This document shows, piece after piece, positions 6,433 to 13,104 of a stretch of 64,000 nucleotides of DNA (position 1 is the first letter of the stretch; each line of letters starts with the position of its first letter). The stretch covers positions 1,600,001-1,664,000 of the forward strand of contig CP170459.1 in assembly GCA_047947115.1 (NCBI GenBank), in the 5' to 3' direction. The notes beneath the pieces were generated by a model. That model did no database searches and was not told the DNA's origin. It worked only from the letters and a program-made list of their open reading frames with translations. The translations under genes and the position numbers were made by a program. This stretch comes from Verrucomicrobiota bacterium. GTDB taxonomy: Bacteria; Verrucomicrobiota; Verrucomicrobiia; Limisphaerales; AAA164-E04.

Positions 6433-7512
6433 TCAGCCTTCTGTTTTTTCGGCAAGCAGGGCTTCGATCTTGTCTTTGAGAAGATGTCTTTCGGTATGTT
6501 CGATGGCTTCCACCAGCTCCCCTTTTTTATTGACCAGCCACATGGTGGGGACGGCTGTGATACCAAAGCGCTGTCCAAAGGCATTTTGCCATCCTTGACC
6601 ATCAAAATACTGGGGCCAGGGCATGTTTTCCTTTTTCGTAAAACTCGTCAGTTTACCTTCTGATTGATCGAAGCTGATGCCAATAATCTCGAATCCCTTC
6701 GGATGGAGGCTTTCATAGGCAGCCTTGACGTTGGGTAATTCCTGGATGCAGGGACCGCACCAGGTTGCCCAGAAATCGATCAGAACGACCTTGCCGTTCA
6801 TCTTTTGTAAGTCGACCTCCCGGCCGTCCACCGCGGTGAATTTCAAATCCAGTTTGGAACCCCACATGCCCAATCGCTCGGCCAGACCTCGGGCAGCGGC
6901 TTTGATTTGTTCGTTTTTGGCGTTTTCACTGACTTCCTTGGCTATTTCGATGCCTTTTTTTCCGCCCAGTTGTTCGGCGATATACATCAACATTTGAGGG
7001 ATTTCTTCATTATCGGGAAACTCCTTGGTCAGCTCACGCACTCCTTTTTCAAATTCCAACAACACTGCTTCCCGACCTTCGGCTTGTTTGGCCATGGCCT
7101 GGTTCTGGATCATGATGCTTCGGACCTGAAATTTTTCAGCTACGGGCAAATCGAGTTTAAGTAACTCGGGAGCTGCTTCGACATATCCATACTCCTGAAG
7201 AGCCTTCTGCAGGTGTTCTTTCTCTGATGTCCTGGCCTCTTCTGCTTTGGCGTGATCTGGGTGCTTGGTGTAAAACTCCTTGGCAAGTTTGGCTGCTTTA
7301 AAGGCTTGCGCTCCGTTTTCTTCGATAAATTTCTCAACTTCTTCCTGACTGGGGCGATTGGTCTGCCAGTCGGCAGGTGCTGTTTTGAGTTGTCCGGCTT
7401 CTTCAACTTGCTTCCACAAAACGTCCGCTTCATCCGATACGGCACATGATGGCATGGCCAGCAATCCGCATATGGCGCTCATTGTCAGGTATTTCTTGAT
7501 CGTGTTTTTCAT
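6433..7512 (-). CDS. TlpA-family thiol-disulfide oxidoreductase, exported or lipoprotein
   Basis: DFWATWCGPC active site in a C-terminal thioredoxin fold; N-terminal signal ending AMPSC. Confidence 0.9.
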   Translation of the reverse strand: MKNTIKKYLTMSAICGLLAMPSCAVSDEADVLWKQVEEAGQLKTAPADWQTNRPSQEEVEKFIEENGAQAFKAAKLAKEFYTKHPDHAKAEEARTSEKEHLQKALQEYGYVEAAPELLKLDLPVAEKFQVRSIMIQNQAMAKQAEGREAVLLEFEKGVRELTKEFPDNEEIPQMLMYIAEQLGGKKGIEIAKEVSENAKNEQIKAAARGLAERLGMWGSKLDLKFTAVDGREVDLQKMNGKVVLIDFWATWCGPCIQELPNVKAAYESLHPKGFEIIGISFDQSEGKLTSFTKKENMPWPQYFDGQGWQNAFGQRFGITAVPTMWLVNKKGELVEAIEHTERHLLKDKIEALLAEKTEG

Positions 7513-10744: not shown

Positions 10745-10924
10745 TCAAATATCCGAGGCCTCATGCTAGAATGCCCGATTGCTGGGTCAAGTTATAATAT
10801 CCAGACAACCCCTATCGCCACGCGATTCTTGGGAATATGACAACTTGATTCGACCTTTTGCTCAATAAAAAGTGACCCGGTTCTCGGATTGCCAAATGGT
10901 TCCCGTTCGGGCAGCATGAAGTCC

Positions 10925-11920
10925 ATGAAACGCGTCGTGATAACGGATTACCTGGAACCGCCTGCAAGCATCGAAACGCAAGTGCTCGAAGGTGTGGCCA
11001 ATGTGGAATGTCTTCTTGCCAAAAATACTCAGGAATTGATGGGGGAACTGACGGATGCAGATGGCATCATTCTTTGTCACGAGGTTTCCATTACCCGGGA
11101 AGTTGTTGAGGAATTACATCAGTGCAAGGCGGTTGTAAGATGTGGGGTTGGGTTTGACAACATTGACCGCAAGGCAGCCGGTGAGCGTGGTATTTATGTG
11201 TGCAATGTTCCCGATTACGGTGTGGATGAAGTGGCGGATCACGCCATAGCCATGGCATTGGCATGTAATCGAGGTTTGATCAAAGCCGAACGAACCCTGC
11301 GAAAGGGCTTGCAGCCTTGGGATATGCGATCCATTCAACCTATTTTCCGCGTTGCCGGTGCGACCATGGGAATCATTGGCCTGGGTCGTATTGGGGGCGC
11401 GACTGCGTTGCGTGCAAAAGGATTGCGGATGAATGTTCAGGCTTATGATCCTTACGTGCGGGCTGGAACTGACAAGTTGTTGGGGGTTCCTTTGGTTGGG
11501 CTTGAAGAACTGCTTAAAACCAGTGACATCGTCTCAGTGCATACTCCTTTGACCGAGGAAACCCGAAAACTGATCGATGCTTCCGCCTTGTCCCTCATGA
11601 AATCCACCGCTATCCTGGTCAATACGGCACGCGGAGCTGTGGTGGACACCGACGCTTTGGCTGCGGCGCTCAAAGAAGGGCAGATCGCAGGAGCCGGAAT
11701 CGACGTGCTGCCCGATGAACCCGCCACCTCTGATATGCCCCTGATTCAACTGTGGCAGCAAGACCGGCAACCCCCGGTCAATCTGATGATCACCCCTCAC
11801 ACAGCTTTCTATTCTGATGCCGGCTTGGTGGAAATGCGCGAGAAGGCGGCCCAGGAAATCCGGCGTGTCCTGTCCGGGGAGATGCCCAAGAACTGCGTCA
11901 ATAGAGAATTCCTTCAGTAA
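10925..11920 (+). CDS. D-isomer-specific 2-hydroxyacid dehydrogenase (CtBP-like)
   Basis: GVGFDNID, GLGRIG, NTARGAVVD, TPHTAFYS. Confidence 0.92.
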   Translation: MKRVVITDYLEPPASIETQVLEGVANVECLLAKNTQELMGELTDADGIILCHEVSITREVVEELHQCKAVVRCGVGFDNIDRKAAGERGIYVCNVPDYGVDEVADHAIAMALACNRGLIKAERTLRKGLQPWDMRSIQPIFRVAGATMGIIGLGRIGGATALRAKGLRMNVQAYDPYVRAGTDKLLGVPLVGLEELLKTSDIVSVHTPLTEETRKLIDASALSLMKSTAILVNTARGAVVDTDALAAALKEGQIAGAGIDVLPDEPATSDMPLIQLWQQDRQPPVNLMITPHTAFYSDAGLVEMREKAAQEIRRVLSGEMPKNCVNREFLQ

Positions 11921-11929
11921 GATGGATTT

Positions 11930-12694
11930 TCAACCTTCCTTCTCGGTGGTGGTACTATTTTGGTAGGTGGAAAGATGAGGCGGTACCAAGTCCTGACGCT
12001 CCAGAAGGGACAGGGCTTGGGTTAACACATCTCGTTGCCCTGCTGGGTCCAGAGGCTTCCCTAGTGCAAACCCATGCGGGAAAGGAACGAGGAGCCCCCG
12101 GGGTGGGCCAACCTTGATGGCGACATCTTTCAGAAACTGGAGAACGACGGTGGTAATCCCTCGTTGTTCCAGGGCTGCTGCTGCCAGACTCACGGTCTGG
12201 TTACACATGGGTCAGACCGGCACCAACAGCACAGCGTCCACACCATCGTCCGCCAGGGCCTCGGAGAATTCCGGCGCTGATCGGGAGGTAAACCGTCCGG
12301 GAGCTGTGATGGATCCCATGAAGGAAAGAAGACGATGATTCAACGCACCAATCCTGCCTTCCGCTTCAAAGGTTCTGAAGTGGTCCAGTGGAAATCCCAG
12401 GTTAGGATCCTGTTCCAGACCGGAATGGTCAAAGGATTGGGAACGATGGGTTTCGATCAGGCTGCCCACATCGCTATCAGTGGGTATCCATCGATAAGAG
12501 GGGTCTCCGCCTTTGACATGGTCATCAAAAGGTTCTTGGTTGGGGAGCACAAAGCCAGCGCTGGAGGCCAAGGCGAACCGGCACTCTGAAAGAGGTTTTT
12601 GCAAAGGGCTCCAAGGGGTTGGGTTGATTTTTCTCCAGGGATAAGCCTTGAGAAAAAGTCGCACACTGAGGGAAAGTTCGCTGGTTTTTGCCAT
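11930..12694 (-). CDS. Selenoprotein of the glycine/betaine/sarcosine/D-proline reductase selenoprotein B (GrdB/PrdB-like) family, 254 aa, Sec at residue 161
   Basis: ORFs 12212-12694 and 11930-12208 are in the same frame, joined as GTC-TGA-CCC-ATG-TGT (V-U-P-M-C); GDPSYRWIP, DPNLGFPLD and DGVDAVLLVPV motifs; SECIS-like hairpin follows the UGA. Confidence 0.88.
12184..12200 (-). promoter_or_regulatory. Putative bacterial SECIS element
   Basis: Minus strand reads UGA, 11 nt, then CCAGAC-CGUGA-GUCUGG: a 6-bp stem with G at the second loop position. Confidence 0.7.
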
Positions 12695-12777
12695 TTTTAG
12701 GAGTTGTAACGTCTTCGATCCATGATAATCTGGATCTCCGCCATTGGTAAGGCAAAGGAAATTTTCACGAAAATTCC

Positions 12778-12846: not shown

Positions 12847-13104
12847 ATGGAAGCAAAATCAAAGACAATCGAAACCTATCGTAGACACGACAAGGACACA
12901 GGTTCCGCAGACGTTCAGGTAGCTATTTTGACCAAGAAAATCCTCTCGTTGACCGAGCATTTGAAGATCAACAAGAAAGATTTCAGCAGCCGACGCGGTT
13001 TGCTGATGATGGTCTCCAAACGCCGTCGTTTGCTGGATTACATTAATCGCACCGACCATAAGCGTTATGTTGCACTGACTCAGTCACTTAACCTGCGTCG
13101 CTAA
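12847..13104 (+). CDS. rpsO: 30S ribosomal protein S15
   Basis: DTGSADVQVAILT...SRRGLLMMVSKRRRLLDY; conserved position upstream of pnp. Confidence 0.97.
   Translation: MEAKSKTIETYRRHDKDTGSADVQVAILTKKILSLTEHLKINKKDFSSRRGLLMMVSKRRRLLDYINRTDHKRYVALTQSLNLRR

Follow-up and report, generated by a model that had tools for sequence, protein, structure and literature searches.

Described Relatives of the Gene

Selenoproteins resembling subunit PrdB of D-proline reductase are frequent in marine sequence surveys. The Sargasso Sea survey of 2005 lists 42 'Proline reductase PrdB' selenoproteins with a UxxC motif, against one GrdA and one GrdB (PMC1088965), and the GOS survey of 2008 places 235 sequences under pfam07355 (PMC2398784). 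Both give the family a proline reductase role, and the available parts of the two reports do not discuss the missing PrdA (PMC1088965, PMC2398784). 'Proline reductase' selenoproteins were also reported from Anaeromyxobacter and Geobacter in a survey of 2006, in the part of that report at hand (PMC1794560), and two reviews, in their accessible sections, mention the family in connection with its role in clostridia (PMC13188914, PMC9312934). For the partner-less branch described below, no dedicated paper was found in a search that covered mainly the openly accessible literature; the supplements of the surveys may list members.

The gene presented here has its Pfam family, its UxxC motif and an aquatic setting in common with the 'PrdB' selenoproteins of the Sargasso and GOS surveys, as far as the available parts of those reports describe them. 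Its revised reading is a correct annotation fix within a family published as selenoprotein since 2005.

One Gene in Place of Two Open Reading Frames

The window, i.e., the whole stretch of 64,000 nucleotides that was analysed, belongs to a genome of 6.08 Mb in one contig, 95.8% complete. On its minus strand, the ORF caller gave two frames, 12212..12694 (160 aa) and 11930..12208 (92 aa), with TGA-CCC between them. The original prediction took these as one reading frame of 254 residues, and the translation agrees: from 12694 to 11930 on the minus strand, the sole breaks are the TGA at codon 161 (12214-12212) and the terminal TGA, and the sequence around the former reads LLVPV-U-PMCNQTVSL. The full gene (11930..12694, minus strand; 254 codons and a stop), whose extent is supported by full-length homologs, is predicted to encode a stand-alone PrdB/GrdB-like (PF07355) selenoprotein. 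The in-frame TGA (12212..12214, minus strand), found in the relatives as well, would encode selenocysteine. Cys164 of the U-P-M-C motif (12203..12205, minus strand), the predicted resolving cysteine, is invariant in the homolog alignment, with TGA at this position in 1 of 80 loci. The two called frames form a single gene, in which the internal UGA very likely stands for selenocysteine.

The UGA codon is crossed by contigs from two RNA-library runs, in which no alternative letter appears; TGA161 is therefore not a sequencing error. Part of a stretch with rpsO in it is present in 20 RNA runs, and none of the contigs shown (four runs) covers 12692-12756. Upstream of the gene, a weak sigma-70-like promoter match, TTACCA-17-TATCAT (9/12), is located at 12722..12750 on the minus strand; three promoter-like sites were counted in the region, compared with 0.6 +/- 0.7 in shuffled sequences.

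Conservation of the UGA Codon and the Selenocysteine Machinery

The gene is present in 11 of 40 related genomes, always with 86-94 open codons after the TGA. A contig scan confirmed 296 relatives, the best 80 of which were analysed (one locus contains a further, partial copy, and two were re-examined). The alignment of homologs at residue 161 that had been proposed as a check came out in favour of the prediction: UGA occupies this column in 11/11 of the relatives and in 79 of the best 80 of 296 loci, the remaining one (L072) having TGC, and Cys is found in 16 of 18 full-length close homologs. The last two, with W or G at 161, retain Val168 and are probably TGA genes called under another code. 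Past the TGA, the reading frame continues for 81-131 codons in every one of the 77 TGA loci that were counted. Amino-acid identity to the window's protein in these 77 loci is 0.60 past the TGA versus 0.64 ahead of it, and the differences by codon position (0.27/0.24/0.70) fall mostly on third positions. The closest named loci are Verrucomicrobiota assemblies, with 87-69% identity. Among the 120 best database homologs, 102 have the short form, all of them ending at V/I/L-P-V/I, the residue before the TGA. Altogether 1,666 homologs were found, so the label 'orphan' given to the gene applies to its partners, none of which was found, and not to its relatives.

The search for selA, selB, selC and selD suggested in the original prediction was likewise positive: selA, selB and selD score above the model cut-offs in the host genome, and a tRNA with anticodon TCA is present. 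The genes selA and selB are adjacent, and selD carries an in-frame TGA of its own. A selA gene was detected in 9/9 tested non-kin carriers of the TGA form; among the kin carriers (n = 11), it was over the cut-off in nine, present as a fragment in one and missing from one, a genome 52% complete. The sole TGC locus, L072, is without the hairpin described below, and its genome has no selA match. By genus, the gene occurs in 9 of 10 genomes of g1 and g2 and in 0 of 11 of g3, of which 10 have selA.

Some loci deviate in other respects. A homolog from a soil Verrucomicrobia (L102:1890-2010, plus strand) reads P-V-TGA-P-M-TGA-N-Q, an arrangement found in 1 of the 80 loci; this double TGA may represent a UxxU form, a sequencing mistake or a broken gene. 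Two records that contain the gene are labelled Bifidobacterium/Bifidobacteriaceae (L054 and L072), and the label of L072 looks doubtful, as its genome measures ~7 Mb. An apparent N-terminal fusion in L032 was rejected, being merely a long open frame upstream of the usual start.

Other UGA-containing genes were seen in the host genome. In two peroxiredoxin-like genes (family assigned by eye), at C1:25240 on the plus strand and C1:3793083 on the minus strand, a TGA lies within Y/N-W-U-P-F-C and a hairpin follows; from their sequences, both are likely further selenoproteins of the known peroxiredoxin-like kind. A thioredoxin-like gene with C-I-P-U-T-A-C is located at C1:3457302 on the minus strand.

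The Predicted SECIS Hairpin

In bacterial SECIS elements, a G is placed early in the apical loop. Here, by our own pair counts, a stem-loop with such a G lies just 3' of the UGA. The hairpin CCAGAC-CGUGA-GUCUGG was found as claimed, starting 11 nt 3' of TGA161: the upper stem-loop covers 12184..12200 on the minus strand (12200-12184 in reading direction), with the loop G at 12193, and forms the core of the predicted minimum-energy fold. Covariation points to the same stem. The whole predicted hairpin, with a weaker lower stem, extends over 12176..12207 on the minus strand.

The folding energy of this hairpin is ordinary (z = -1.14; 32/200 shuffles fold equally well) and was rejected as proof of a SECIS element. 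Counted over all six genomic frames, 39,873 of 251,619 TGA triplets (16%) are followed by a hairpin that satisfies a loose rule. By itself, the hairpin is not above chance, and the case for a selenoprotein hence rests on comparison. A genome-wide scan for UGA, hairpin and motif returned 502 candidates, mostly noise, and served for the chance rate and three leads; the Rfam search gave three chance-level matches, none near the gathering score.

For the comparison, the window gene was aligned with 69 TGA loci (n = 70), and pairs were counted by ourselves. The stem positions pair in 93% of cases, versus 17-46% for slid partners. Two-sided changes occur in the stem: C15-G31 becomes U-A in 17/70 and A19-U27 becomes G-C in 24/70. 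In the lower stem, the pairs 11-35 and 12-34 are kept in 67 and 65 of the 70 sequences, and pair 10-36 in just 42. Three pairs are changed on both sides, a number matched by 169/500 shuffles in a control that ignores kinship, which inflates such controls.

The loop G (12193) doubles as the first base in the codon for Val168. All 72 of 72 distinct TGA sequences have this G, and Val168 is absent from 16/16 full-length Cys homologs, which have M, S or A instead. As far as sequences can tell, this link between Val168 and the loop G is a second, independent sign of UGA decoding. In its in-frame UGA, its 3' stem-loop and its machinery, the gene is like the bacterial genes with a SECIS inside the ORF and SelA/SelB/SelC/SelD, as summarized in the available part of a review (PMC9312934). 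It does not differ from them in type; its loop G imposes a Val codon, so that the Sec and Cys forms can be told apart at the protein level. The selenoprotein call of the original prediction was thus borne out by the Sec machinery, the conserved UGA, the stem covariation and the Val/G link.

Relation to PrdB and GrdB

The gene had been placed among the GrdB/PrdB-type enzymes with a UxxC motif, which was confirmed: Pfam GRDB (PF07355) scores 44.1 bits against a gathering cut-off of 22, the match spanning model positions 203-345 of 347, i.e., the C-terminal part, and two proteins annotated as PrdB in plasmid records are 30% identical to it over 210-223 residues. The best NCBIfam model is TIGR04483 (PrdB), with 121.7 bits and E = 3e-35, below its equivalog cut-off of 300. 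The GrdB models reach 44-55 bits against cut-offs of 65-800. As in PrdB, the UxxC motif is part of a chain of ~26 kDa.

The protein is like PrdB (TIGR04483; clostridia, enterococci) in its length of ~240-250 aa class, the position of its UxxC and the shared core motifs. It is unlike PrdB in that its branch has an N-terminal helix of its own and in that it comes without prdA, prdH or a prd operon. With GrdB/GrdF/GrdH (PF07355, TIGR01918), it shares the PF07355 match, 44 bits over a cut-off of 22. However, the window protein (254 aa versus ~430) is without the N-terminal 200 residues of GrdB, its UPMCNQT lacks the third Cys of UxxCxxC, and no grdA or grdE accompanies it. The motif is U-P-M-C-N-Q here, U/C-G-T-C-H-R in PrdB and U-G-x-x-T-R-C in two GrdB rows; the residue after the selenocysteine is thus Pro here and Gly in annotated PrdB and GrdB. 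In a quick tree of 111 rows, with a midpoint root and near rows picked by similarity to the window's protein, the latter falls in a 42-row branch (SH-aLRT 98) that contains neither the two PrdB nor the two GrdB rows.

A profile search extended the family to 2,854 clusters at 50% identity. From the best 150, 62 were picked as spanning the motif, which leaves out truncated UGA forms. Among these 62 distant homologs, Cys161 is present in 44, Pro162 in 39 and Cys164 in 51; 18 are without Cys161 and 11 without Cys164. Residues D64, R68, D96, N98, P102, E176, T182 and R199 are conserved family-wide, including PrdB. One branch of Cys homologs of 380-420 aa (P0130, P0131, P0147, P0158, P0159, P0164, P0167, P0178, P0186 and others) has a C-terminal domain of ~150 aa, which has no Pfam match; its fold might hint at the substrate of the family.

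Partners and Genomic Neighbourhood

In the 95.8% complete host genome, PF09338 (PrdA/GrdE type), PF04723 (GrdA) and TIGR04480 have no match. Tblastn of the genome with an annotated PrdA, a PrdD-type protein and a CBO2463-type gene taken as PrdH returned nothing, nor did two GrdE and a GrdB fragment. With PrdB, tblastn finds the window gene; with PrdC, it finds just an RnfC-like gene. This single PrdC candidate was rejected, as it stands in an operon of its own. That Rnf-type operon (C1:4696764-4706000, minus strand) comprises the RnfC-like gene and membrane subunits, recognized by eye, behind a large oxidoreductase gene. The UGSC family, considered as a partner, has no match in the host genome; its controls were silent as well, so that this result is uninformative. 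Eleven fusion tails of distant homologs had no Pfam match and found nothing in the host genome.

In 57 other carrier genomes, many of them incomplete assemblies, PF09338 was detected in three and GrdA in two, which indicates that both models work; the other 54 gave no PrdA/GrdE match. Two of the three PF09338 hits adjoin a separate, ordinary grdB. On a Peptoclostridium acidaminophilum plasmid, an annotated prdB (L117:5980-6693, plus strand) has no annotated prdA within 6 kb to the left or right, in a gene table that is incomplete.

The original statement that no grdA, grdE, prdA or trx lies nearby holds for the Stickland partners, none of which was found in the genome, but not for trx, as a thioredoxin-family gene is found ~4.4 kb away. 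This redoxin/TlpA-type gene (6433-7512, minus strand) has a W-C-G-P-C motif and, by eye, a likely export signal. It recurs near the selenoprotein gene in four close relatives only.

The gene does lie beside rpsO, as had been noted: rpsO (S15; 12847..13104, plus strand) is the divergent neighbour, followed by the PNPase gene. On the other side, a convergent gene of the D-isomer 2-hydroxyacid dehydrogenase family (10889..11920, plus strand) is common to close relatives only. This order, rpsO-pnp, gene, dehydrogenase, is kept just within the same family. Among the best 80 of 296 loci, each neighbour family is confined to 13 at most (the gene itself and its shadow frames aside), most are restricted to a single lineage, and none is common across phyla. 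A hydrolase-OsmC gene lies directly downstream in six Desulfobacterales loci.

Predicted Structure

A structure model was computed from 17 sequences with Cys in place of Sec (pLDDT 87.5, pTM 0.88). The predicted fold is an alpha/beta/alpha sandwich, in which residue 161 would sit at the start of helix 162-177, just past strand 154-158. The PDB gave no match by sequence at E <= 1, and Foldseek none at E <= 0.001. A wide fold search returned generic alpha/beta sandwiches only (best Z 9.4, rmsd 4.9, 140 aligned residues), from which no function follows. No thioredoxin-fold entries are among the fold matches listed, and Thioredoxin_3 scores 14.2 bits against a cut-off of 24.8.

Proposed Mechanism and Alternatives

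At codon 161, SelB would bind the hairpin and bring in Sec-tRNA; that SelB and the hairpin deliver it there is strongly inferred and almost certain. The 254-residue protein would then act alone in the cytoplasm as a selenol/thiol reductase, much as the original prediction proposed a stand-alone thiol/selenol redox role. The selenolate of Sec161 would attack oxidised sulfur, in a disulfide or an S-O bond, on a protein or small-molecule substrate. Cys164 would free the product, leaving Se and S bridged, and the enzyme would be reset by a general thiol system of the cell whose genes lie elsewhere. Taken whole, from decoding through a stand-alone cytoplasmic reductase with Cys164 resolving and a thiol-system reset, the mechanism is a tentative one, slightly short of probable; the decoding step by itself is far more certain. 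A stand-alone reductase is favoured because no pyruvoyl partner was found, Sec is followed by Pro and an OsmC gene is the neighbour in one lineage. On the side of thiol chemistry, U-P-x-C also occurs in the two peroxiredoxin-like UGA genes of this genome (W-U-P-F-C), and its Pro in 39 of the 62 distant homologs. Against it stand the restriction of the OsmC link to one lineage, the incompleteness of most carrier genomes and the fact that an unrelated partner is undetectable by the searches used. Furthermore, the residues conserved family-wide, PrdB included, may reflect a shared small-molecule chemistry and not disulfide exchange. The host was predicted to respire, which three matches to the COX1 family in its genome fit and bear out. 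Carriers of the gene include strict anaerobes, and oxygen stress alone hence does not explain it.

Two readings would take the gene at the value of its database entries. If the TGA were a real stop, the locus would be a pseudogene or encode two small proteins; 102 of the 120 best homologs do appear in the databases as the 160-aa form, an ATG lies two codons past the TGA, and the folding energy of the hairpin is not unusual. Yet the last residue in each of these 102 entries is the one that precedes the TGA, a stop would split a UxxC motif that the Cys homologs keep in one chain, and the stem covariation, the Val/G link and the selA that accompanies the TGA form speak for decoding, so that a real stop is next to impossible. 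The label that JGI gives to many homologs would make the protein a true D-proline reductase PrdB, or else the B subunit of a glycine/sarcosine/betaine reductase. Its best NCBIfam model, TIGR04483, its size and UxxC and its 30% identity to two annotated PrdB proteins agree with this, but the scores fall short (121.7 versus 300 bits for TIGR04483; 44-55 versus 602-800 for the GrdB models). The N-terminal 200 residues of GrdB are absent, PrdA, PrdH, GrdE and GrdA are without a match in the host genome and the quick tree sets the protein on a separate branch, all of which makes either identity very improbable.

The remaining alternatives keep the gene and its decoding and differ from the stand-alone reductase in what follows. 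Sec161 could attack the carbon of an already activated small molecule, breaking a C-N, C-S or C-halogen bond with Cys164 resolving and no pyruvoyl subunit. For D-proline reductase, the available part of the source states that the substrate's alpha-carbon is attacked by the Sec of PrdB, that the U151C variant is inactive and that substrate binding by PrdB needs the pyruvoyl group of PrdA (PMC11229817); the first two points favour such chemistry here, and the third counts against it. Homology over residues 23-233, with polar core residues common to PrdB and GrdB, favours it, and the retention of Sec in 79 of the 80 loci fits a step that needs a strong nucleophile. On the other hand, Cys forms exist, Sec is followed here by Pro and, at the fifth position, by Gln, where the two PrdB and two GrdB sequences aligned have Gly and Arg, and no transporter or catabolic gene is common across phyla in the best 80 of 296 loci; carbon chemistry is thus credible though unlikely. 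Alternatively, the protein could be the Sec-bearing member of a complex, with a partner encoded elsewhere that is unrelated to PrdA/GrdE or too diverged to be detected. All characterised family members work in complexes, as described in the accessible parts of two sources (PMC13188914, PMC11229817). At least 11 distant homologs (356-419 aa) have a C-terminal extension that could be a fused partner, and the RnfC-like gene of the Rnf-type operon has 31% identity to PrdC. The genes of obligate subunits, however, usually stand in one operon, and no common operon emerges in the best 80 of 296 loci; the 11 tested fusion tails have no match in the host genome, and the RnfC-like gene belongs to a separate membrane-complex operon ~3.1 Mb off. 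A hidden partner of this kind appears rather improbable.

Significance of the Family

As a correction of annotation, the result is modest. The UGA truncates 102 of the 120 best database homologs, and many bear the label D-proline reductase although its partner subunit was not found. Metabolic reconstructions that read such genes as Stickland proline reduction in aerobic marine and soil bacteria are probably wrong. Should an activity be found, a function could be assigned to one of the selenoprotein families met most often in ocean surveys. As a test system the family is simple, with a single gene, Cys forms that occur naturally and a structure model of high confidence that has no close solved counterpart. 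A broader and rather speculative idea, on balance doubtful, is that the abundant environmental 'PrdB' selenoproteins are no proline reductase subunits but a one-gene family in at least eight phyla that would cleave a carbon-heteroatom bond of a common small metabolite with Sec only and without a pyruvoyl group, the Stickland PrdB and GrdB being its specialised offshoots.

Elsewhere in the host genome, at C1:3169333-3175606, a 369-base unit is repeated in at least 18 tandem copies; it is probably part of a repeat-protein gene.
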